A stretch of DNA of 49,788 bases, from positions 1-49,788 of the IMG/VR virus record IMGVR_UViG_2718217868_000004; one strand, written 5' to 3'. Below, one piece after another: positions 1 to 36,585 of this stretch. The stretch comes from a virus. Taxonomy: Duplodnaviria; Heunggongvirae; Uroviricota; Caudoviricetes. The notes under the pieces are model-generated. The model ran no database searches, had not been told where the DNA came from, and worked only from the letters and a program-made list of their open reading frames with translations. The position numbers were made by a program, and so were the translations under genes. The first letter of the stretch is position 1. Each line of letters begins with the position of its first letter.

Positions 1-558
1 TCAGCTAGCTGGAAACTTTTTATACAGAGTTGAGAGCCCTACTCCATACGTTTTTGATACGCTTTGTCGTGATTCACCGGTTGCCATCCGCTCCCCCATT
101 TCCCGCCATTGCTCATCCGTGAACTTAGGCCTGCGACCACCAACTCGCCATTTTGCCCTGGCTACGGCCAGCCCTGCTAAGGTACGTTCGCTATTAAGAT
201 CAGATTCATACTGCGCAGCAGAAAGAATATTACGGAAATTATAGCGACCACTTGCTGTTTTCAGGTCTACGCCATCTGTAATACTCCGAAAATTAACACC
301 TTTTTCGTGCAGATTTTGAAACATCAACAGCGCATGCAGAACGTTGCGGCCTATCCTGTCCAGCTTCCAGACCACCAGTTCATCCCCCTCATTTAATGCC
401 TTGAGAAGCTTTTTTAGTGCTGGCCGGTTTGCTACCGTTCCGCTCATTTTTTCTTCGAAAATTTGTTCACATCCTGCGCGTTCGAGCGCTTGCCGCTGAA
501 GATCCGTATTTTGGTCATTTGTTGACACCCTTACATAGCCAATTTGTATATTTTTCAC
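1..558 (-). CDS. Serine recombinase, DNA invertase of the Hin/Gin/Cin/Pin family
   Basis: 185-aa ORF with N-terminal GYVRVSTNDQ catalytic-serine motif and C-terminal HTH; close resemblance to e14 Pin / Mu Gin as remembered; lies next to an inverted-repeat-flanked tail fiber segment. Confidence 0.9.
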   Translation of the reverse strand: MKNIQIGYVRVSTNDQNTDLQRQALERAGCEQIFEEKMSGTVANRPALKKLLKALNEGDELVVWKLDRIGRNVLHALLMFQNLHEKGVNFRSITDGVDLKTASGRYNFRNILSAAQYESDLNSERTLAGLAVARAKWRVGGRRPKFTDEQWREMGERMATGESRQSVSKTYGVGLSTLYKKFPAS

Positions 559-2037: not shown

Positions 2038-2063
2038 ACTTCCTAAACCGACCTTTATTCACC
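2038..2063. repeat. Right crossover site of invertible segment (gix-like, core GA near 2050-2051)
   Basis: ACTTCCTAAACC-GA-CCTTTATTCACC; TTCCT..AAACCGA..TTT resembles the Mu gix site as remembered; inverted relative to the 615-640 site; contains the stop codon of the upstream fiber gene. Confidence 0.55.
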
Positions 2064-3413
2064 TTCATCGTCAGTCATGGAGAGCTCAGTAGCTCTCATT
2101 CTATGGTTGTATAAAGAATCGGCAGGCATTTCGACACGCACGGACACAAACTGGTCACGGGGGATATCGACCGGGTCGCCATCATTGATACCCTGTAGCT
2201 CGTTCCTGGCGAACGCCGGTGCTTCCGGGTGTGTACGGTGATAGGTTTTCACCAGCACAGAACCGTCCGCATTAACTTCGTAATCCAGCCAGATGAGCGG
2301 CTGCTTGTTGCGGTCGGTGGGGATATCAAAACCGCCATCGATGCCGCCCCAGGCTGCGTCTGAGTTCATTCCCTCACATCCTTCAACCAGATATTCACCG
2401 ACGGCAAGACGGGTTACAGTGCAGCCTTCTGATTCATCGTTAGTCTGGTATGTACCATCCGAAAACATCTTTAACACCGGCGATGCGGCTTTTAGAGTGC
2501 CATCGCTGGCACGAGTTGTATTGATGGTGGTATAGACTGCAAACCAATCGGAATAATTGCCAGCTGCATATTTAGTTCGCCCTGCGATTCCCTTTTGAGT
2601 GATTACGCATTGGGCATTGAACAACCCAGCCCCAACATTCAATGCCACTCCATAATAGTTAATTAGCGATTCCCCTATGCTTTTCGAAGGTGAGCCTTCC
2701 CCCGCACCATTTCCGTCATCAAACTGGCGGCCATAGATGCCAGAACCACCGTAGTTGGGAGAGGCATCAGGCATATCAGTGGTGCTATTCCAGTTTTTGT
2801 TATTGGTTGTCCCAGTAAAAACTTGCTCAACTATTTGCAGGCTATTCCTTGCATCTTTAGCTGAGTTGGCACCCGTCCCACCTAAGCTGACAGGTACCAC
2901 ACCTTTGCTATCTACCAAACCGAGGTTTGTGCGAGCGTCTGCTGCAGTCGTTGCCCCGGTCCCGCCGTCTGCAACAGCAAGCGCACCGTTGCTCCCTTTC
3001 TGCGCAAGTTTACCGATGCCTGGGATGGTTACGGCGGTGCCGTTGATGGTAACTGTGATGCTTTGGTTTGCTGAGGTGGTGGCGAACGTCTCCCACGCGC
3101 CAATATTCTCGTCATATTCTTTGATGAGCTGCGACATTGCCTGGGCCAGTCCGTCGACGGAGATAATGTCTGACACCAGAATGGCGTATTTCTGGCCGCT
3201 CAGCGCCGGAGAAGCTGCAGGCGTAATCGTCATTGACGTGGCGCTGTTCACGGATGAAATCTGGAACAGCTGCACCGGGTTAGACATCACGATAATTGTC
3301 TGCCCAGCGCGAACCTGGCTGGCCGGTGCCGTCCAGTTTGTGCCCGTCCCGGTGGCGGTATTTCCATTAATGGCGATGGTGCCGGTGTTATAAAGCATAT
3401 TTTCTCCAGGCAA
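2055..3413 (-). CDS. Side tail fiber protein (Stf-like, constant part); probable true start at ATG 3398
   Basis: Gly/Thr-rich N-terminus and repeated GGTGA..DARxNLGL phage tail fiber repeats; GGAG RBS before the ATG at 3398; stop codon sits inside the right crossover site. Confidence 0.8.
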   Translation of the reverse strand: MPGENMLYNTGTIAINGNTATGTGTNWTAPASQVRAGQTIIVMSNPVQLFQISSVNSATSMTITPAASPALSGQKYAILVSDIISVDGLAQAMSQLIKEYDENIGAWETFATTSANQSITVTINGTAVTIPGIGKLAQKGSNGALAVADGGTGATTAADARTNLGLVDSKGVVPVSLGGTGANSAKDARNSLQIVEQVFTGTTNNKNWNSTTDMPDASPNYGGSGIYGRQFDDGNGAGEGSPSKSIGESLINYYGVALNVGAGLFNAQCVITQKGIAGRTKYAAGNYSDWFAVYTTINTTRASDGTLKAASPVLKMFSDGTYQTNDESEGCTVTRLAVGEYLVEGCEGMNSDAAWGGIDGGFDIPTDRNKQPLIWLDYEVNADGSVLVKTYHRTHPEAPAFARNELQGINDGDPVDIPRDQFVSVRVEMPADSLYNHRMRATELSMTDDEGE

Positions 3414-3437
3414 TAAAAAAACCCCGCCGGAGCGAGG
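3414..3437 (-). terminator. Intrinsic terminator-like hairpin plus U-run on the minus strand, immediately upstream of the tail fiber RBS
   Basis: Minus-strand CCTCGC-tccg-GCGGGG stem followed by TTTTTTT; member of the GCCCCGC/GCGAGGC hairpin family seen four times in the window. Confidence 0.5.
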
Positions 3438-3458
3438 TTTATGTTTAAGCGTAGTGGG

Positions 3459-3692
3459 TTATTTGCAGGTTGTTTCGGTAAATGTATTCGCACTTACCCA
3501 GCGCCAGCTGAAAGGATATCCAGCCCGGTACTGCGTCTGGTTGTTTTGTTTACGCACACCGTAAATCTGAACCGTAGTTTCCTGACCGCCAACGATTGCA
3601 GTGCCGCTGCAAACTGGTTCCTGTTTCTCAATTACGCCAGCGCATCCTGTAAGCATGACAGCGCCTGCCATGCAGATAATCAGTTTTCTCAT
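3459..3692 (-). CDS. Small outer-membrane lipoprotein, possible Llp/Cor-type superinfection-exclusion factor
   Basis: 77-aa ORF with signal peptide and lipobox LTGC; mature part about 61 aa with two further Cys; located between the J-proximal genes and the side tail fiber; the function is inference from size and position. Confidence 0.6.
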   Translation of the reverse strand: MRKLIICMAGAVMLTGCAGVIEKQEPVCSGTAIVGGQETTVQIYGVRKQNNQTQYRAGYPFSWRWVSANTFTETTCK

Positions 3693-3759
3693 TTTGATAG
3701 TATCCAGAGGAATTCAGTATCTTAGACGATACCAATACAATTCTGGTGGGTATAATTGA

Positions 3760-3803
3760 TTGGATAGATCAATATTATGTTATTGATCGCTAAAAACGAT
3801 CAA
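3760..3803. promoter_or_regulatory. AT-rich promoter region with three clustered GATC sites and an 8-bp inverted repeat upstream of the lipoprotein gene
   Basis: GATC near 3767, 3785 and 3798; ATTGATCG-N7-CGATCAAT inverted repeat; minus-strand TTGATC / CATAAT promoter-like hexamers. Confidence 0.3.
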
Positions 3804-4478
3804 TCAATCATAGGCCGCTGTATTTATGGCGGTTAATGAAATGCCAGTATTCGTTCCCCCTCCAGGTGAACCTGCCCCAGTGGAGGTCCCCCCTGCGTTT
3901 ATCCTCGTATTGGCCCCGTCAAACCTGCATGAAGAATAAGCATTTATCGTGTAGATAGTCGGAGGCTGGGTTGAATTATTCACAATGATGGTCTGACCCA
4001 ACTGAGCAGGTGCAACGGCCCATGACCCGCTCAGCGTCTGGTCAATATTTATCCCGCCGTTTGCACCAGGCGTGCCAACCGTCTGCAGGTCTGATAGCAC
4101 ACGGGACTCATTAGTTAACACAAGCTTTCCGCTCGCATCCCATATTGCCAAACCCCATTTCGGTAATATCTGCGGGAATATGGCAAAAACGTACGCCGTT
4201 AAAGTGAAACTTTGGTTGTAGGGATTAACACCAGCAACATACACATTACCGCCGTTCCTGTAAGACATAACCGGAGTGGGCTGTGCTGTATTGGTGGTTT
4301 TGATAAAAACCATCACTGGGTAATCAGCGTTTAAAGCGATATTTTGAGCAACCTGCTGAGAACTGCCATTCGCGGATGAATTGAAGGTATACTTCCCGTA
4401 AAGACAGAAAGGCGTTGATTGTGGCGTTACAAAGGGATTCCCGTTATCCATTAATATCATCGCGCCAAATTCGGCCAT
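3804..4478 (-). CDS. Hypothetical tail-associated protein downstream of J
   Basis: 224-aa ORF, Gly/Thr/Asn-rich, abuts the next gene; position after J. Confidence 0.5.
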   Translation of the reverse strand: MAEFGAMILMDNGNPFVTPQSTPFCLYGKYTFNSSANGSSQQVAQNIALNADYPVMVFIKTTNTAQPTPVMSYRNGGNVYVAGVNPYNQSFTLTAYVFAIFPQILPKWGLAIWDASGKLVLTNESRVLSDLQTVGTPGANGGINIDQTLSGSWAVAPAQLGQTIIVNNSTQPPTIYTINAYSSCRFDGANTRINAGGTSTGAGSPGGGTNTGISLTAINTAAYD

Positions 4479-4780
4479 TATGCTTTCTCCATGAAAACGA
4501 CCACCTCACATTTAGAGGCCGGGTAATTACCCAGGCCCACAGAAGAGGCTGCGGTTACGGTTATTGTGTTCCCTGACGCGACAATGCTCCTCCCTACGCT
4601 GTTACCTCCTTCATCAAGTGAGAGCGCAAAACCGACCTTCATTCCTGAGGGTACAGTGAAAGACCAGCTGCCGGAGTTTTGTCCGGCGGCAAGTTGTATA
4701 CGTCCAACAACGGAAACGGGCTTGATTCCGTAGTTGTTGGGGTTTCCCGAAGCATCCCAGGTCTGTATTCCATAAGCCAT
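4478..4780 (-). CDS. Hypothetical tail-associated protein downstream of J
   Basis: 100-aa ORF immediately after the J stop; start overlaps the stop of the next gene. Confidence 0.5.
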   Translation of the reverse strand: MAYGIQTWDASGNPNNYGIKPVSVVGRIQLAAGQNSGSWSFTVPSGMKVGFALSLDEGGNSVGRSIVASGNTITVTAASSVGLGNYPASKCEVVVFMEKA

Positions 4781-4781
4781 A

Positions 4782-7700
4782 TCAGAACACCCCCGTTAAT
4801 CGGCCAACCTGCACTCTCAGAACGTTGTTGCCATCCTTGACGCTGATTGTCTGGTTGGTCTGCTTCATGGCTCCCTCCCCAGCTGTCGAACCGTAGTTCT
4901 CAAACGTCCCGGACTTATCCAGTTTCCAGCCAACAGAGCCGGCAACATAATTGTTCGACTGGATGTAATTGCCAATTTTTGCATTGCTTATGGTCCCGTC
5001 GCCAATGACTGTATCCCTGATAATGGCCTGGCCATTCTGGATAACGAACGGCAGTGTTACAGTCCCGCCGACCATAGTAGTCACGGCGAAACGGTCTGCC
5101 AGGAAGATTACCTGTGACTGCATGCCGGAGGGTGTATTTTGAACCCCAATACCCATCCCGGCAGCGTAATACTGCCCGTTACTGGACACCCCCACCTTGA
5201 TGTTATACATCGCGCTGAGGTTACCGTTTACATCTGCTATAGCCTGTGCGTTGACGTTTATCGCTGCACTGTTTTCGCCTGATTTAACAGTCAGAGTGTT
5301 GATTTTTGTTGCCGAAGCCTGGGTGAAATCAGCAAGAGTTTCTGTCAGGTCCGTTGAGTTAGAGATATTGCCACCAGCTTCTGCATCCAGTGTGACCAGC
5401 GCGCGTGCGACCGCCTGGCTGGTATCGGCAATCGTAGTATCCACTCTGTCTATACTGGCACTGTTCCCGGCGTTCGTGGCGGTCTGCGAGCGACGGCTTA
5501 CCACCTGCGCCAGCCCATTCTGAATAATCGCGATTGCCGAGTTCTTCACTCCTCCCGTCATGCCGTCCATCGACACAGAAATCTCGTCGATCTTCACTTC
5601 GGCCTGAGCCAGCCCGTCAGCGTTCTCCAGGATGTCTTTCGCCTGCTGCTCGAGTTCGTCGGCATGGTTTTTAATTTCGTCAGCCATGCCAGCAATTTTT
5701 TCGTTGCTGTCCACCGCGTTCTCGATCAGATCTTTGAACGTATCGGAGCCTTTCATGTCCTCCAGGATTGCATCGGTGATATCGGAAACATCGATGCTGG
5801 CCTGCCCGCGCACCCAGTCTGTCCAGTCGCTCTGATTCCCGATGCGGTCAACCAGCCGTGCCCGGTACCAGAATTCCTGCCCTGCCTTCAGCCCCATCTG
5901 CTGATAGAGTTTCTGAGGATACGGCACCGACGCCAAAAGCATTGGATTTGCCCCATCGACTGAAGCGCTGTATTGCAGTTCCGTGCTCAGGGTGTCGGCG
6001 GTATCTGCGGGGAAACCCCATGTAATGTTGATCCCAAATACAACATCCTCTGTTGCTGTTAGTCCGACAGGTTTGGGCACTTCACCGGTGCGGCCGGTAA
6101 GATGGGTCAACGCAGACGTGGCCCAAAGGCTGGACGCTCCCCCAGAGTTAATCGCACGGACGCGCACAAGGTAATCGCCCTCGAAAATGCCAGGCACTTC
6201 GATATTTCGTAACCCGGTTTCAGGCACGTTTACCCATTCGTTATTTCCGCGCTTCCACTGTGCCCGGTACGCTATTACGTCCGACTGCAGTTTGCCGTCT
6301 TTATCAATTGGCGCATCCCACGAGGCGGTTAGCGTGGCCACGCGTTGCCCCTGGCGAACCGCATCATAGCTCGATACCACGATGTTGGTCGGCTGGTTAA
6401 CTAGCCCGGTCGGAATCAGGCTTATCGGAGGAGTATCGAGGCGAGCGTTGTTATCAACGGCGTCGTATTTCGACGCGTTATACTCCGCACCGGTAATGGT
6501 GAAGGTGTTTTCCTCATCATCAAATTTTAGGTTCGTTACCCGGAAATACTGCAGGCGCAGCTGACCAGCATCAATGACGAATACGGCATTAGGTAATGGC
6601 GCCGCCGTGAACGGCGTGGACAGGATCAGCTGCGTGCCATTTACGGCCTGTATCACCCGGCTTTCAACGGTACCGCCCTGGGTGCGAATCATCAGCGTAT
6701 CGCCCGCCACCGCACTGGTGCCCCGGTCAATGGTCACGGCCTTAAGACCAGCGTTATACCCGGTGATACGCCCGCCGTAAACGCGCCCTGACAGGCGTTC
6801 ATCTGCAAACGCAAATACGGTGCCCGGCACGAATACAAAGCCATCAAGTCCAGTCTGAAGCGTGATAATGCGGTCAAGGGAGTTGGAATACACCGCCCAC
6901 CCGCCACGCCGCTGCGCCTCGCTCTCACGCGTACAACCGATCGCAGTGATTTGTGTCTGCTTAAACTTGAACTGCCTTACCAGTTCCGGAAACATCACTG
7001 CCGTGGTGCGGTCCTGGTAGTGGTTATCCGGATCGCTGAAGTTAATCAGCGCGCTGGAGAATCGGTTTTTCTCACTGCCACTCGAGTACACCGGCTTACC
7101 CACCACTGATGCGCGAGTGAGGATCTGCAACTTCGTAGTGTCCGCCGGCATGTCAGAGACAACATTGAACATGTTGTTGCCCCAGAAAGTCATTCCGTTG
7201 AAGCCCGCGGCAATATCTTTAATCACCTGCCAGGCATCAGCCTGGGACTGGATGTAAACGTCAAACATGAAGCGTGGCTCGGTACCGCTTCCGCCTTTCC
7301 CGTCGGGTACCTTCTGGTCGCAGCGCTGGGCGATGCGATAGAGCTCCCACTTATCGAGCATTTCTGGCGTCACGCGGCGCCCAAGGCCGAAGCGCGGCTC
7401 AGTCAGAACATCGAACCAAATCCACGCCGGGTTATTCGTCCAGCCCCATTTAAACGTCCCGTCCCATGTTCCGCTATAAGTCCGCGCTATTGGATCATAG
7501 TTCGAAGGGATTCGGATGATGCGCCCCTTCGGCATGCAGGAAATCTTAGGGATGTTGTTGAATGACTTTGCGTTAAAGGACACGTACAGCAGCGCTGTGT
7601 GTGGATATCGCAGGCGAGCATCGATCACTTCAGTAATCGCTTGCACCTGCGTTTTGTTCTGCAGCATCTGGCTGGTGCTGTCATCGGTGTCACGCACCAC

Positions 7701-8261
7701 TCGAATTTGCCAGCCAGTGCTGGCTTTGGGAAGATTAATACGGTGGGTTAGTTCATAGAGCGAGCTGAGCTTCTCTGTGACGGTTTTCGTCATGACTGTC
7801 GAGTAAGCGCCACCGTCCACCGCCAGATCAATATGGTACTGAACCGTAGTGCCGACAATATCCCCATCGTTTTCCTGCTGCTGTAACCCAGGGATGCCAA
7901 TACGAACCAGCACCGCGTCAATCTGGGTGTTACTCAGTGCGCGGGTCCATGGTGTGGCCTTTGTCAGCGATACCCCAACCGTAGTTTCATTCTCGACTGC
8001 AGGGAATCCCGGTATTGGTGTCTGGGTCTGTGTGCCAGGCCGGAAATCCCATGACACATTTTCAAAATTCATCGTTCCGTCGGGGTTTCCCAACGGCGTA
8101 CCGTCCAGGAATATCCGGGTCGCATCCAGGCCACCAGCAAACTCCCCCTCCCCGAGCGCCAGCAGCATGCGGCAGCGCGCCATTGACTGAGCCGAATCGG
8201 GCTGTTCTACAGGTGTGTGCTGCTTCTGGCTGCCACCCTTTGCACCAGTGATCGCTTCCAT
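4782..8261 (-). CDS. Central tail fiber / tip attachment protein J (host specificity protein)
   Basis: 1159 aa; N-terminus and overall organisation resemble lambda J as remembered; follows tail assembly genes I, K, L, M. Confidence 0.9.
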   Translation of the reverse strand: MEAITGAKGGSQKQHTPVEQPDSAQSMARCRMLLALGEGEFAGGLDATRIFLDGTPLGNPDGTMNFENVSWDFRPGTQTQTPIPGFPAVENETTVGVSLTKATPWTRALSNTQIDAVLVRIGIPGLQQQENDGDIVGTTVQYHIDLAVDGGAYSTVMTKTVTEKLSSLYELTHRINLPKASTGWQIRVVRDTDDSTSQMLQNKTQVQAITEVIDARLRYPHTALLYVSFNAKSFNNIPKISCMPKGRIIRIPSNYDPIARTYSGTWDGTFKWGWTNNPAWIWFDVLTEPRFGLGRRVTPEMLDKWELYRIAQRCDQKVPDGKGGSGTEPRFMFDVYIQSQADAWQVIKDIAAGFNGMTFWGNNMFNVVSDMPADTTKLQILTRASVVGKPVYSSGSEKNRFSSALINFSDPDNHYQDRTTAVMFPELVRQFKFKQTQITAIGCTRESEAQRRGGWAVYSNSLDRIITLQTGLDGFVFVPGTVFAFADERLSGRVYGGRITGYNAGLKAVTIDRGTSAVAGDTLMIRTQGGTVESRVIQAVNGTQLILSTPFTAAPLPNAVFVIDAGQLRLQYFRVTNLKFDDEENTFTITGAEYNASKYDAVDNNARLDTPPISLIPTGLVNQPTNIVVSSYDAVRQGQRVATLTASWDAPIDKDGKLQSDVIAYRAQWKRGNNEWVNVPETGLRNIEVPGIFEGDYLVRVRAINSGGASSLWATSALTHLTGRTGEVPKPVGLTATEDVVFGINITWGFPADTADTLSTELQYSASVDGANPMLLASVPYPQKLYQQMGLKAGQEFWYRARLVDRIGNQSDWTDWVRGQASIDVSDITDAILEDMKGSDTFKDLIENAVDSNEKIAGMADEIKNHADELEQQAKDILENADGLAQAEVKIDEISVSMDGMTGGVKNSAIAIIQNGLAQVVSRRSQTATNAGNSASIDRVDTTIADTSQAVARALVTLDAEAGGNISNSTDLTETLADFTQASATKINTLTVKSGENSAAINVNAQAIADVNGNLSAMYNIKVGVSSNGQYYAAGMGIGVQNTPSGMQSQVIFLADRFAVTTMVGGTVTLPFVIQNGQAIIRDTVIGDGTISNAKIGNYIQSNNYVAGSVGWKLDKSGTFENYGSTAGEGAMKQTNQTISVKDGNNVLRVQVGRLTGVF

Positions 8262-11989: not shown

Positions 11990-14900
11990 TTACTTTTTCA
12001 CAAAGCGGCCACCAATCGCTCCATCATCTCTGATTGCTCTGACGATGCCTTCTTGGACATACTGCTTCACACGATCAGCCAGCGCGCGAGCAGCCGCGTC
12101 ACCACCACCGCTGGTATTTGCAGTCGCGTTACCTTTGTTATCGACATAAATATCAACGTTGATTTGATGTCCGGAACCACCAGCGCCTTGGGCACGCACA
12201 CCCAACCGCCCTGCTGAATCTTTAGCTAACGGCATAATAGCTTCCGGCCCTGCCTCTCCAAAGACGCCGCCCTTGGCAAACTTAGAGGCCCCCTGGAAGG
12301 AGAAGTATTGCGGGGAATCATAGACACCGTTCACATACTGGTGAAGGCCCGCTGATTCGTAGACACCACCCTTAGCATTCCTGACTGGCCCGACGAAATC
12401 TGGACTGCCGATACCGCCACCTTGAGGATTTGAAGAGCCACTTATCCACCCCATTGCCGCCTGCACCGCATAGGCCACCATGAGGCGGTTCGTCACATCA
12501 AGGATCATCTTGAGCATGGATTTGCCAAACTCTTTAACCGACGCAGTGCCGGTTGTCATGAGTTCGGTTAGCATGTCGGACAATCCTGTCAAAGTGGAGC
12601 TGGCAACGTTCTTAACGGCGTCGTATGTATTGGTAGCAGCGTCGAGATATTCATTCCAGCCACTTACCGCACCTGCTTTCCAGTCGCCCCGTAATTTGTC
12701 CTCTTCGGCATAATATTTCCTGAGAGCCGCCAGTTCTTTTTTATAACCGGCATCGTCAAGCTTACCGCCACCGTTGAGCCAGCCCTGGCGAAGCTGCGCC
12801 TCTTCCATCATGCGCTGCGTTTGCCGACTGCTGAGACCTGCACTATCACGCAATGCATCGGTTTTTTCCGACATCTGCGTGACGTATTTATTCGCCTGCT
12901 GCGCCAGGCCGTTAATCTTCTGCTGCGCCTCTACTTCCTTGTTCTTCTGATCCACCACCTTGGCGGCGTTCAGAATGGCCTCACGGCTCGACAGTAGAGA
13001 TTTCTCCTGGGCGGTCAGCGCGCGTGTTTTGGCAGCCTCATCCAATTCAGCAAAGCGAGATTGCTGTTTGCTGAATTCGGTATATCTGACCTGAGTCTCC
13101 CCAGTCTTGCGCAACGTTTCGAGTGTTTCAGTTAACGTTCTGGCCTGGGCGCGGTAGTTCTCAAGAGTGCGATCGCCAGCATCCAGCGTGGCTTTTGCCT
13201 CTTTGGTCTTTTTGGCTGAGTCTTGTGCAAGCTTCGAGACTGCGTCTCTTGATTCTCGACTTGTTCCTCCATCACCTTTTACGTTAGACCCTCGCGCTTC
13301 AGCCTCATAGTTTGCCTGTGCGTTAGGCGCAGTGACGCGCTTCCAAAGCTCGTTATAGCGTTTTTTGTTCGCCTCAATCTCTTTGTCCGCCTCCGCTCCA
13401 GCCTTTTTCATTGCCTCAACGTCCATGCCGAGGAAATTAGCCAGCGCACCGCCACCCGGGATTTTGTCTGCCCAGCCAGCGATGGTGCTGGTGAACTTGG
13501 CGTCCAGAGAGGTGATATTGAGGAACAAGTCTTTGATCGAGGATTTAACCAGTTCGAAAATATCAATGATCTGGTTTCCCCATGCGCGCACGGTAATACC
13601 TATATCGCCAAAGGTGTCAGAAGCGCTCTTTTTAAGGTTTTCCCACGTTTGACCGATATTATCGGTCGCTTTGTTGGTCTCCTCTGCGCGCTTTGCCATG
13701 ACGCCTGCAAACAGCTCAATAGCTTCGGTAACAGCCGCCTGCTCACCCTTCTGCTTACGTAGCTGGATAATGTGCTTGATCATGGCTTCATCAACGAAAC
13801 CATATTGTTCATTGAGGCTGGCAAGCCCTTTAACCGGATCGCTGACAATCTTTCCGAAGTCGCTTATTGCCGCTTTGGTATCATTTCCGGCCTTACCCAT
13901 GAGGGTGATGGTCGTTGCGACCTGCTTCATCTGGCTTGCGGTATATTTGCCAGTATCATTCAACGTAACCAGCGTATCGACGGTGGAGCTAATCGATGTA
14001 TTCGTCTTGCCAGCCACTTCCTCAGCGGCCTGGTTGAGCTGCTGCATTGAGGAGAAGCCAGCCCCACCCATCATGATGACAGAGCGTGCCACCTGCTCAA
14101 ATTGCTCCGAGGAGTTATACGCTGCGGCAGCCAGCAGGCCGATCGTGCCAATCAGCCCACCAAGTGCGATTGTGGTAGGGTTAATCATCCCAGCCATGCT
14201 GCGGATGTATTCGCCGACGCCGGACAGCGCCCCCTGAACCGAGCCGAACTGGTCTTTAATCTGCCCGCCCTGTTGCAGCAGAATCAGGAACGGCGACTGA
14301 CCGCCAGCCAGCTGCGTGGCGATATCGGTGAATTGCGCCGGAAGCGTGCGCATTGCTGCGCTGTACTGACCAACGGAGATTCCAGCGCGCCGGGCAGCAG
14401 CTTCCTGCCGGGATAGCGCCTCTGGTAGTACGTCAGCGACACCAGAGAGGCGCTCACGCGTCTGGTTAAGGATTGTGTTGAAGTGCTCGAACTGAGCACC
14501 GTTAATGCGCCCAGCTTCGAAATGTGCCACCAGCTGTGCGTGCTGTTCATCCAACGAATTGAACGCGCGGATAGTCGGGTCGATGGATCCAAGAAGGTTC
14601 TTTAACGCTGCGGACTGCTTCTCTGCCGCCTGGGTAGCGGCTAATTCGGCCTGAGCACGCGCCGCGGCTTCTCCGGTGTCGGTCAGCTTGAGGCGGGTGT
14701 CATCCAGGATTTTGTTGTATGCCTGAAAGGTATCGGTATCCAGGAAACCTTTGGCCTGGAATTTCCGCAGCGATTCTTGCTGCTCATCCAGGCGGTTTAA
14801 GGCCTTGGTAACCGGGTCGATATTCTCCAGCAGCCCTTTGAGCGCGTTCTGCTGCTCCTTGAGTCCTTCGCTGCCTTGCTTCGCAGATTCAGCGCCAGCG

Positions 14901-34596: not shown

Positions 34597-36585
34597 CTAA
34601 GCCGCTATTTGTTTCGATTGGCATAGTTCCGGCAAATTAGCACGCACCAGCGCTTCAGCGAACGGCGGTGGCACCGCGTTACCGCAGCGGGCAACCTGTT
34701 TATCCTTCGCGTACTTCTTGCCCCGGTAGTCCTGGTCGATGATGTACCAGTCCGGGAAGCCCTGCGCCCGGTACAGTTCGCGCGGCTGTAACATGCGCAT
34801 ACCAATATCAACAATGCGATACGTCACGCCATCGATCACCACCAACCCGGTACAATCCTCACCACAGTATTTGCGCAGGAACGCCAGCGTTTGTTGCGCG
34901 CGTTCTTCGTCGTACTCATCTACGGCAAGATGAGTTTCAACGTTCCCTACATGCAGGCCACCAGCCGTGACAGTCGGCATTGGCGCGTCGGTGCGTTGTC
35001 CATCCCGGCAGGTTCCGCGCAATTTAACCAGGTGAGAAGCAACCACAGCATGGTGATCGACGGTGGTCACAGAATGCATCGGCTCATCCATCCCCACTCC
35101 GGCGCCCTGGTAATTCCCGCCGTAATGTTTAATGAGATGTGCAGCGGCAACCGCAAATTTATTACCGCCAGCGGTGACCGTGCCAAGCGGGCTATCAAGT
35201 TTCAGCACACGCGGCTCTTGCCCTGGACGTTCGCCATAACCCATCTGAATCAGCGTTGGCGTCACCAGCTGTGATTTACCGCCACCGCCCGCGGTGATAG
35301 TTGCGCTCGGTTCGTCTGCCCGGTGGCCGATACTGGCACCAAACTGCCGGGCAATAACCGGAGCCACCAGGCAACTGCGCGATTGCTTCAGAATAGTGTG
35401 AGCGGGTTTATTTAGTGGGCGCGGCTTCGCCTGATATTCACTGCCCCCATTGCCAGCCAGGAACGGAGTGATCGCCGCCTCAACCAACCCAAGAGCATGA
35501 CCATTGCCGCCCGGGCGCACCGACGTCCCAGCTGTGACAGTGGGCACAGGTTCGGTAACGGGCTGCCCGGTTGCGCCAGTACGGAACTTTGTCAGGTGTG
35601 GAACGGCTAACGCGTAGCCGTGGGTTTTCGTAATGGTCTGCAGAGGCTCTCTCAGCGCCTGCCCACGGAAACAGTCGTATTTCCCTTTGGTCGTCGTGTG
35701 GTTGCACTTGACGATGAACGGCGACGCGCTCTCGATCACAAACCGCTGGATGCCACGAGCGATGCGTTTGAGCGTATTTTCAGCCAGTGGCTTTTTGCGG
35801 TCGAATATCGACGGTGCCGGAATGGTCCAGTCGATACACTCCGCAGCTGTACGCCATGGCGCCAACTTTCCACTCTGCACAGCTGGAGATTTCGGGTCGC
35901 CGTGGGTCGGGTCCGGCCAGGTCACCGGCATACCATCGCAACGCATTACCATGAAGAAACGCTTCCTGATGGTCGGTGCGCCAAAGTCGCAGGCGCGCAG
36001 CTCACGATGATCAACAGCGTAACCCAGCCCGGCCACCAGTTGCTGCGCCAGTTCGCCGTCGGCAGTAATACCCAGGAACTCGCAGCACTCCGCCAGCGCC
36101 GGATGACCGGCAGGAATACCACCGGATAGCATGCCGCAGAAAGCCTCGAAGGTCTCACCAGTACGCAGGGGATTTGGACGTAACCCACCATCAGCAGATT
36201 CGATAAGCGGCCCCCAGGTGCGGAACTCTTCAACGTTCTCCAGCATCATCACACGGGGACGTACCGCCAGCGCCCAGCGAATGACAATCCACGCCAAACC
36301 ACGAATCTCTTTCTCTACCGGCTTTGAACCTTTAGCCTTTGAGAAGTGACGGCAATCAGGGGAAAACCATGCCAGCCCCACCGGGCGGCCAGCGGTCGCT
36401 ACGATGGGATCGACATCAAACACCGATTCGCAGTAGTGCAGTGTATCCGGGTGGTTCGTAGTGTGCATCGCAACAGCGTTCGGGTCGTGGTTAATCGCAA
36501 TATCCACACTACGACCGATCGCCAGCTCAATGCCCGTGCTCGCCCCGCCGCCGCCGGCAAAGTTATCAACGATGATTTCTCTCAC
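34597..36585 (-). CDS. Orphan DNA cytosine-5 methyltransferase; start at GTG overlapping the upstream stop
   Basis: Motif I FAGGGG, PC-type catalytic motif (SPDC) and ENV motif (LENV); GGAGAAA RBS before a GTG that overlaps the upstream TGA; no restriction endonuclease gene nearby. Confidence 0.8.
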   Translation of the reverse strand: MREIIVDNFAGGGGASTGIELAIGRSVDIAINHDPNAVAMHTTNHPDTLHYCESVFDVDPIVATAGRPVGLAWFSPDCRHFSKAKGSKPVEKEIRGLAWIVIRWALAVRPRVMMLENVEEFRTWGPLIESADGGLRPNPLRTGETFEAFCGMLSGGIPAGHPALAECCEFLGITADGELAQQLVAGLGYAVDHRELRACDFGAPTIRKRFFMVMRCDGMPVTWPDPTHGDPKSPAVQSGKLAPWRTAAECIDWTIPAPSIFDRKKPLAENTLKRIARGIQRFVIESASPFIVKCNHTTTKGKYDCFRGQALREPLQTITKTHGYALAVPHLTKFRTGATGQPVTEPVPTVTAGTSVRPGGNGHALGLVEAAITPFLAGNGGSEYQAKPRPLNKPAHTILKQSRSCLVAPVIARQFGASIGHRADEPSATITAGGGGKSQLVTPTLIQMGYGERPGQEPRVLKLDSPLGTVTAGGNKFAVAAAHLIKHYGGNYQGAGVGMDEPMHSVTTVDHHAVVASHLVKLRGTCRDGQRTDAPMPTVTAGGLHVGNVETHLAVDEYDEERAQQTLAFLRKYCGEDCTGLVVIDGVTYRIVDIGMRMLQPRELYRAQGFPDWYIIDQDYRGKKYAKDKQVARCGNAVPPPFAEALVRANLPELCQSKQIAA

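Follow-up and report, generated by a model that had tools for sequence, protein, structure and literature searches.

The DNA analysed here is a 49,788-nucleotide stretch from a tailed phage (Caudoviricetes; IMG/VR record IMGVR_UViG_2718217868_000004, positions 1 to 49,788), referred to below as the window. It contains a small lipoprotein gene on the minus strand, cor, that is preceded by a compact block with three GATC sites. The minus-strand gene order is J (4782–8261), two small genes (4478–4780 and 3804–4478), cor, and the side tail fibre gene (2055–3398). This order agrees with the location between the J-proximal genes and the side tail fibre gene from which the original prediction had started. 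The features of the locus are collected in Table 1.

Table 1. Features of the cor locus in window coordinates; a point stands for features given without a strand.
Feature	Position	Strand	Remark
Rho-independent terminator after cor, before the tail fibre gene	3419–3440	-	terminator scan: 9-bp stem, then T run
cor gene, 77-residue prolipoprotein Cor (FhuA-blocking exclusion protein)	3459–3692	-	
Lipoprotein signal peptide (residues 1–16) and lipobox Cys17 (L-T-G-C)	3642–3692	-	read off the sequence
Predicted start site	near 3718	-	phi80 record annotation
Predicted extended -10, TGGTATCGT, of the cor promoter	3726–3734	-	transferred from phi80 record annotation
Predicted -35	3751–3756	-	phi80 record annotation
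Conserved regulatory block with three GATC (3767, 3785, 3798)	3751–3805	.	
HS3, alternative putative OxyR half-site, ATCTATCCAATCAAT	3755–3769	.	7/10; N16 from HS1; abuts predicted -35
HS2, putative OxyR half-site, ATAATATTGATCTAT	3764–3778	.	8/10; N7 from HS1; overlaps GATC 3767
HS1, putative OxyR half-site, ATCGTTTTTAGCGAT (cor strand)	3786–3800	.	8/10 to ATAGnTnnnAnCTAT
Upstream gene, phi80 gp23 homologue	3804–4478	-	phrog_425, E 1e-80; phi80 gene 23

The small lipoprotein is Cor, a protein already known. It begins MRKLIICMAGAVMLTGC and reads in full MRKLIICMAGAVMLTGCAGVIEKQEPVCSGTAIVGGQETTVQIYGVRKQNNQTQYRAGYPFSWRWVSANTFTETTCK. The 77 residues, the LTGC lipobox, the mature part of about 61 residues and the extra cysteines that had been described for it can all be read directly from the open reading frame: cleavage in the context MRKLIICMAGAVMLTG/C leaves a mature protein of 61 residues with two more cysteines, C28 and C76. 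The lipobox cysteine is nearly invariant among 27 homologues, and the phi80 record (FN582354) annotates the same Cor feature as a signal peptidase II substrate. Cor matches phrog_1119, "Cor superinfection exclusion protein" (E 7e-37), and the NCBIfam equivalog NF047972, "phage exclusion lipoprotein Cor", a whole-protein HMM with a curated cut-off of 31 bits that it hits at 140.9 bits (E 9e-42, positions 1–76 of 78). These matches bear out the earlier assignment to the lambdoid Cor type; the same family holds the Cor proteins of phi80, N15, HK022 and mEp167. The 521 bp around the gene are 100% identical to phages mEp043, mEp213, mEp237 and HK140, 94% identical to phi80, and 99–100% identical in 40 complete E. 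coli genomes; the Cor allele is that of the mEp phages. It is carried by 49 complete E. coli genomes, among them H5, H6, ECONIH4 and KL53. Over its whole length the window matches an E. coli H5/H6 prophage at 100% identity, and the gene already bears the name cor in RefSeq. The locus is the cor moron in the phi80/mEp237-type tail region of a lambdoid prophage of E. coli H5/H6.

The Cor proteins of HK022, N15 and phi80 inactivate FhuA, block FhuA-dependent phages and colicin M, and lower ferrichrome uptake (PMC3594210; Cor function is also treated in bioRxiv 10.64898/2026.03.26.714494). By homology with these characterised proteins, the Cor studied here would inactivate FhuA and exclude FhuA-dependent phages, at the cost of ferrichrome uptake. 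The original prediction had also likened the lipoprotein to T5 Llp, and this likeness stood for the fold and fell for the sequence: Llp (PDB 8a60 chain B, 7qjf) shares a small beta-barrel fold with Cor, with only 13% identity. Neither phmmer nor a profile search with Cor returned Llp among PDB sequences, and Llp is not listed in the Foldseek top 50 for Cor. Llp comes from a lytic phage, and nothing suggests that it is regulated in the manner considered below for cor.

In the phi80 record cor is presented as a moron that has a promoter and a terminator of its own and encodes a lipoprotein signal peptide. This self-contained layout between J-gp22-gp23 and the side tail fibre gene is common to phi80, mEp213 and N15, and the equivalent terminator is annotated in phi80, mEp213 and others. 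Given the terminator and the predicted promoter, we treat cor as an independent transcription unit. The TGnTATnnT pattern of the extended -10 is invariant in 49 aligned cor upstream regions. A promoter lying within the GATC block (TTGATC-18-CATAAT) was considered and rejected, as its -10 is not conserved among relatives, and the conserved extended -10 annotated in phi80 was preferred.

The block upstream of this promoter reads GATTGATCGTTTTTAGCGATCAATAACATAATATTGATCTATCCAATCAATTATACCC on the cor strand. Nowhere else in the window do three GATC sites fall within 35 bp as those of the block do (3767–3770, 3785–3788 and 3798–3801), and the stretches on either side, 2.2 kb and 1.8 kb long, contain no GATC. 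The block contains a perfect inverted repeat, ATTGATCG (3782–3789) and CGATCAAT (3797–3804) separated by N7, whose last arm base is overlapped by the stop codon of the gp23 homologue (3804–3806), and a second inverted repeat, GATCAATA-N6-TATTGATC, starting at 3767. Both the three GATC sites within about 35 bp and the 8-bp repeat with its N7 spacer were thus found as the original prediction had described them. By themselves, however, they were rejected as evidence, since each lies within chance expectation. Dinucleotide-shuffled windows contain 0.875 such GATC triples on average, with at least one in 55% of shuffles, and perfect 8-bp repeats with loops of 3–10 number 12 in the window against an expected 6.7 ± 3.2. 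Over the whole window GATC is rarer than expected (154 sites against 206 ± 14 in dinucleotide shuffles), in agreement with the GATC depletion reported for E. coli prophages (PMC4659465).

The case for a function rests instead on the match to the OxyR consensus and on the conservation of the block across cor loci, since both exceed chance. We scored the block against the OxyR consensus ATAGnTnnnAnCTAT-N7-ATAGnTnnnAnCTAT (20 specified positions), taking as half-sites matches of at least 7/10 at a spacing of N7 or N16–17; this is a crude scoring. HS1 lies within the inverted repeat at 3782–3804 and carries the GATC sites at 3785 and 3798. It can be paired in two ways, HS1-N7-HS2 and HS1-N16-HS3, both of which provide two half-sites at an accepted spacing. 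The N7 pair scores 8+8, that is 16/20 over 37 bp, and no other site in the 49.8-kb window reaches 15; none of 200 shuffles reaches 16, the shuffle maximum being 15. The genuine agn43 site, for comparison, reaches 14/20 with N7 spacing and 16/20 with N17. All three GATC sites overlap core elements of the putative half-sites.

Among the systems closest to this arrangement are the experimentally defined OxyR/Dam sites of the P22 gtr operon. The gtr OxyR(A) half-site, ATTGATCG-GTAACAA-CGATCAAT, has arms identical to those of the cor repeat, and OxyR(C), ATTGATCG-CTTGTAT-CGATCAAA, is one base off; each carries two GATC 13 bp apart. OxyR binding to the gtr sites was shown by electrophoretic mobility shift assay and was abolished by Dam methylation, and OxyR- and Dam-dependent phase variation was shown as well (PMC2909390). 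In both gtr and cor, the element precedes a prophage gene for lysogenic conversion whose product changes susceptibility to phages. The layouts differ: gtr has half-sites A, B and C at 32-bp spacing, four GATC in two pairs and two alternative OxyR positions, whereas cor has one GATC pair and a single third GATC, with partner half-sites at N7 or N16.

In agn43 (flu, in prophage CP4-44), three GATC lie inside one OxyR site at a spacing of 19/13, compared with 13/18 at cor. The cor block aligns locally to the agn43 switch of E. coli K-12 (GATCAATATCTATTTTATCGATCGTTTATATCGATCGAT) with a score of 36 over 39 columns and a single 1-bp gap; shuffles gave a mean of 15 (sd 2.5, maximum 29), and 0/2000 reached 36. 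Unlike the cor site, which is upstream of the predicted promoter, the agn43 OxyR site lies downstream of the start site, with OxyR acting as a repressor (PMC2909390). The HS1-N16-HS3 register mirrors the layout of agn43 (N17) and of Mu mom (N16). The three GATC of mom are spaced 18/13 and lie upstream of the promoter, as those of cor lie upstream of the predicted one; its half-sites differ in scoring only about 7/10 by simple consensus scan. Expression of mom also requires the phage activator C, and OxyR represses it. Like the gene considered here, mom belongs to a phage; it is under Dam and OxyR control, and whether it phase-varies is not known (PMC2909390).

The Salmonella opvAB operon, which we liken to cor from its descriptions, has half-sites centred at -75 (OBSC) and -43 (OBSD) beside the -35 (PMC4856963). 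Counted from the predicted start site, the candidate cor site extends from about -82 to -37, with half-site centres near -75 and -44. The opvAB operon differs from cor: its half-sites number four, as do its GATC, whose methylation patterns alternate. The opvAB product alters phage susceptibility with a fitness trade-off (PMC4856963; PMC4652898). A switch of the Pap type, which combines a pair of GATC boxes separated by 102 bp with Lrp sites and a PapI-like gene (PMC2909390), was rejected for cor, where the GATC spacing is 13 and 18 bp and no further GATC occurs within 1.8 kb. FNR, Fur, IHF and DnaA motifs, looked for by eye in the ATTGAT repeats, fit neither in spacing nor in core sequence.

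Conservation was measured in Cor loci from IMG/VR that were picked by protein similarity alone (77–100% identity), giving 52 unique upstream regions. In 45 of these 52, all three GATC stand at the same distances from the ATG. Mean pairwise identity over 55 unique loci reaches 0.90 in the 55-bp block and 0.98 in its GATC columns, compared with 0.62 for third codon positions of cor and 0.74 for the promoter and 5' untranslated region. The conservation is selective within the half-sites as well. Positions specified by OxyR are identical at 0.97 in HS1 and 0.96 in HS3, against 0.81 and 0.84 at the n positions (permutation test of specified positions over HS1 and HS3, P = 0.002); the central spacer of the HS1-N16-HS3 register falls to 0.64, and the ATAG-side element of HS2 varies among relatives. 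The pattern extends to distant homologues. A Rahnella prophage (Cor 62% identical) and a metagenomic locus (Cor 57% identical) both retain three GATC with the 13/18 spacing, at about -106, -93 and -75, the spacers of both having diverged, and an Enterobacter phage also retains three GATC. The phage records (phi80, mEp213 and others) carry the OxyR/GATC block too, unannotated, with no difference at the level of the Cor protein.

Natural variants of the block also occur. Phage ECP1 (L087) and locus L067 have a deletion between repeated ATCAAT motifs (45 alignment columns in L067) that removes the partner half-site and puts the two-GATC half-site directly upstream of the promoter region; in ECP1 it comes, as read, within about 1 bp of the usual proximal half-site position. 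Loci whose Cor is 100% identical show four single-base variants in a 125-bp stretch; two of them convert GATC to GATA within the two-GATC half-site (L006:1376–1500 and L008:1376–1500), and one falls in the extended -10 (TGG to TGT in L009). These three variants could be naturally locked or retuned versions of a switch.

The repeat is not confined to cor. The exact repeat ATTGATCG-N7-CGATCAAT occurs in at least 120 IMG/VR contigs. Among the matches listed, a third GATC lies 18–19 bp from the repeat in 92 of 102 unique contexts, 40 of which adjoin genes other than cor (other-cassette loci: IMG/VR L091–L210, e.g. L158, L121, L166, L109, L112, L116 and L148). In that same set of listed matches, the neighbours include membrane or cysteine-rich proteins of 40–100 residues beside the P2-like tail sheath gene FI (at least 25 loci), an O-acetyltransferase (phrog_3333), and an 89-residue secreted protein that, with the cassette, takes the place of cor ahead of the same tail fibre gene; most of the non-cor cargo there is without a PHROG match. 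From these sequence contexts, the cassette looks like a portable OxyR/Dam unit for prophage morons. P2 fun(Z), a T5-blocking gene in the cassette slot of P2-like prophages, was rejected as a further case, P2 having no GATC in that intergenic region.

Taken together, the resemblance to defined OxyR/Dam sites and the selective conservation make it fairly likely, in our judgement, that OxyR binding competes with Dam methylation at the block and sets the expression of cor, probably bistably. The host LysR-type regulator OxyR would bind two half-sites directly upstream of the predicted extended -10 promoter, one holding two GATC 13 bp apart and the partner holding the third GATC 18 bp on. OxyR on the unmethylated block would shield the three GATC from Dam, and methylated GATC would prevent OxyR from binding. 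The two would compete after replication, either state being heritable, and only one of the two epigenetic states would allow cor expression, or expression would at the least depend on Dam and OxyR. OxyR binding, its sensitivity to methylation and bistability are what we infer for cor from the sites it resembles. RefSeq annotates no adenine (Dam-like) methylase in the prophage and only a cytosine methyltransferase, and GATC methylation would therefore rely on host Dam; a phage-encoded Dam that overrides the switch was rejected on the same annotation. The cytosine methyltransferase is itself a large protein of 662 residues (34597–36585, minus strand).

As to the direction in which OxyR would act, the layout fits two precedents of opposite sign. 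OxyR is needed for opvAB expression (PMC4856963), and the opvAB-like placement weakly favours OxyR as an activator of cor, with the unmethylated state ON. The cor half-site position is also 5–6 bp or less from the repressing OxyR(BC) position of gtr. The start site to which these distances refer is a prediction taken from the phi80 record, so that it is uncertain where the site lies with respect to the promoter, and with that the polarity.

Several further points weigh against an OxyR/Dam switch at cor. The argument for it proceeds by analogy throughout. The partner half-sites score just 7–8/10, and the 15/20 of the N16 register is equalled by one unrelated site in the window. Some lineages have lost parts of the block: the HK022/HK75 group retains the middle GATC only; in N15 and a Klebsiella locus an 8/10 ATCG-N7-CGAT half-site (ATCGTTATTATCGAT and ATCGTTTTAAACGAT) survives with one or both GATC lost; and ES18-type and Atlantibacter cor genes are without the block. 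Cor function in these lineages therefore does not require Dam control. Lysogens of phi80 and N15 are described as robustly resistant to T1 and phi80, which disfavours a strongly OFF-biased switch.

The main rival is plain activation or repression of cor by OxyR, perhaps linked to oxidative stress and iron uptake and without heritable states, the GATC sites being a by-product of the ATCG...CGAT form of the OxyR consensus. The half-site kept in N15 and the Klebsiella locus despite GATC loss speaks for this explanation, and so does Mu mom, which is under OxyR and Dam control without phase variation having been shown for it. The GATC columns are nevertheless the best conserved of the block, and a third GATC recurs at 18–19 bp in most of the listed contexts, including the 40 at unrelated genes. 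This regularity is hard to explain otherwise, and the GATC sites themselves are therefore presumably under selection. Methylation of the identical gtr half-site, moreover, blocks OxyR binding (PMC2909390). We regard regulation by OxyR without heritable states as unlikely on balance, while ranking it above every other competitor of the OxyR/Dam switch.

The block might instead bind another protein (a different LysR-type regulator such as HdfR, or else SeqA, a protein of the nucleoid or one of the phage) or serve as an AT-rich UP-like element, with no part played by OxyR. It is AT-rich with repeated ATTGAT/ATCAAT motifs, and the consensus scoring is crude; HdfR also belongs to the LysR type, and methylated GATC sites impede its binding (PMC6735912). 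Set against this, the arms are identical to a site experimentally shown to bind OxyR, and the conservation follows the OxyR-specified positions; a phage repressor in particular is disfavoured in that phages of different immunity types have the block in common. This explanation seems to us improbable.

Still less credible is the idea that the block is kept for RNA or for recombination, as a hairpin in the late tail transcript or as a linker aiding gp23-cor mosaic exchange. The region 3693–3830 (minus strand) does fold more stably than shuffles (-32.8 kcal/mol, z = -3.45), and the block does sit at a gene boundary in mosaic phages. A conserved RNA structure was nonetheless rejected, as covariation support is absent: the block helices are almost invariant, the single pair that varies cannot form in 27 of the 48 sequences, and the folding potential simply follows from palindromic DNA motifs. 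A gp23-cor linker would not account for the cassette beside unrelated genes in P2-like prophages. Chance clustering without function, which the expected frequencies of the GATC triple and the 8-bp repeat would allow, is effectively refuted by a cluster that is conserved across genera while neighbouring neutral positions diverged, and by an OxyR match that shuffling did not reproduce.

Two other observations concern the prophage around cor. A Pin/Gin-type serine invertase (Resolvase and HTH_7 domains; 1–558, minus strand) adjoins two oppositely oriented tail-fibre C-terminal open reading frames (584–1998 region), and a 20-nucleotide inverted repeat (622–641 and 2909–2928, 90% complementary) has one arm, 2909–2928, within the tail fibre gene and a AAACCGAGGTTT core that we take to be gix-like. 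Invertase and repeat suggest a host-range segment that can invert, comparable to those of phi80 pinL and mEp237, directly beside the putative epigenetic switch. RefSeq shows the tape measure gene (11990–14419) as split, one part being a partial pseudogene (13781–14419) after which an unannotated gap extends to 15037; this may therefore be a defective prophage that has kept cor.

Cor itself is known; the new part is the OxyR/Dam-type element upstream of cor, and the switch is predicted from it. We found no link of cor to OxyR, Dam or phase variation in the literature searched in full text. More tentatively than for cor alone, we suggest that cor may be one of a wider, undescribed class in which a portable three-GATC cassette would drive diverse prophage morons of Enterobacterales, and lysogens would hedge receptor or surface function epigenetically against resistance. 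The contexts listed above suggest that the same cassette has been reused before many uncharacterised prophage cargo genes, and such cassette-driven genes could be found by a simple sequence signature.

Among prophage products that shield the host by closing a phage receptor, Cor is a standard example, and the cell pays for this protection in FhuA-mediated ferrichrome uptake. If the proposed control is true, a receptor-blocking lipoprotein would join the short list of Dam/OxyR-controlled genes (agn43, gtr, opvAB and mom), and the measurement of exclusion strength, of escape in phage therapy and of prophage fitness effects would change. A clonal population of lysogens would then contain both protected and iron-competent cells, hedging ferrichrome uptake via FhuA against resistance to phages and colicin M.

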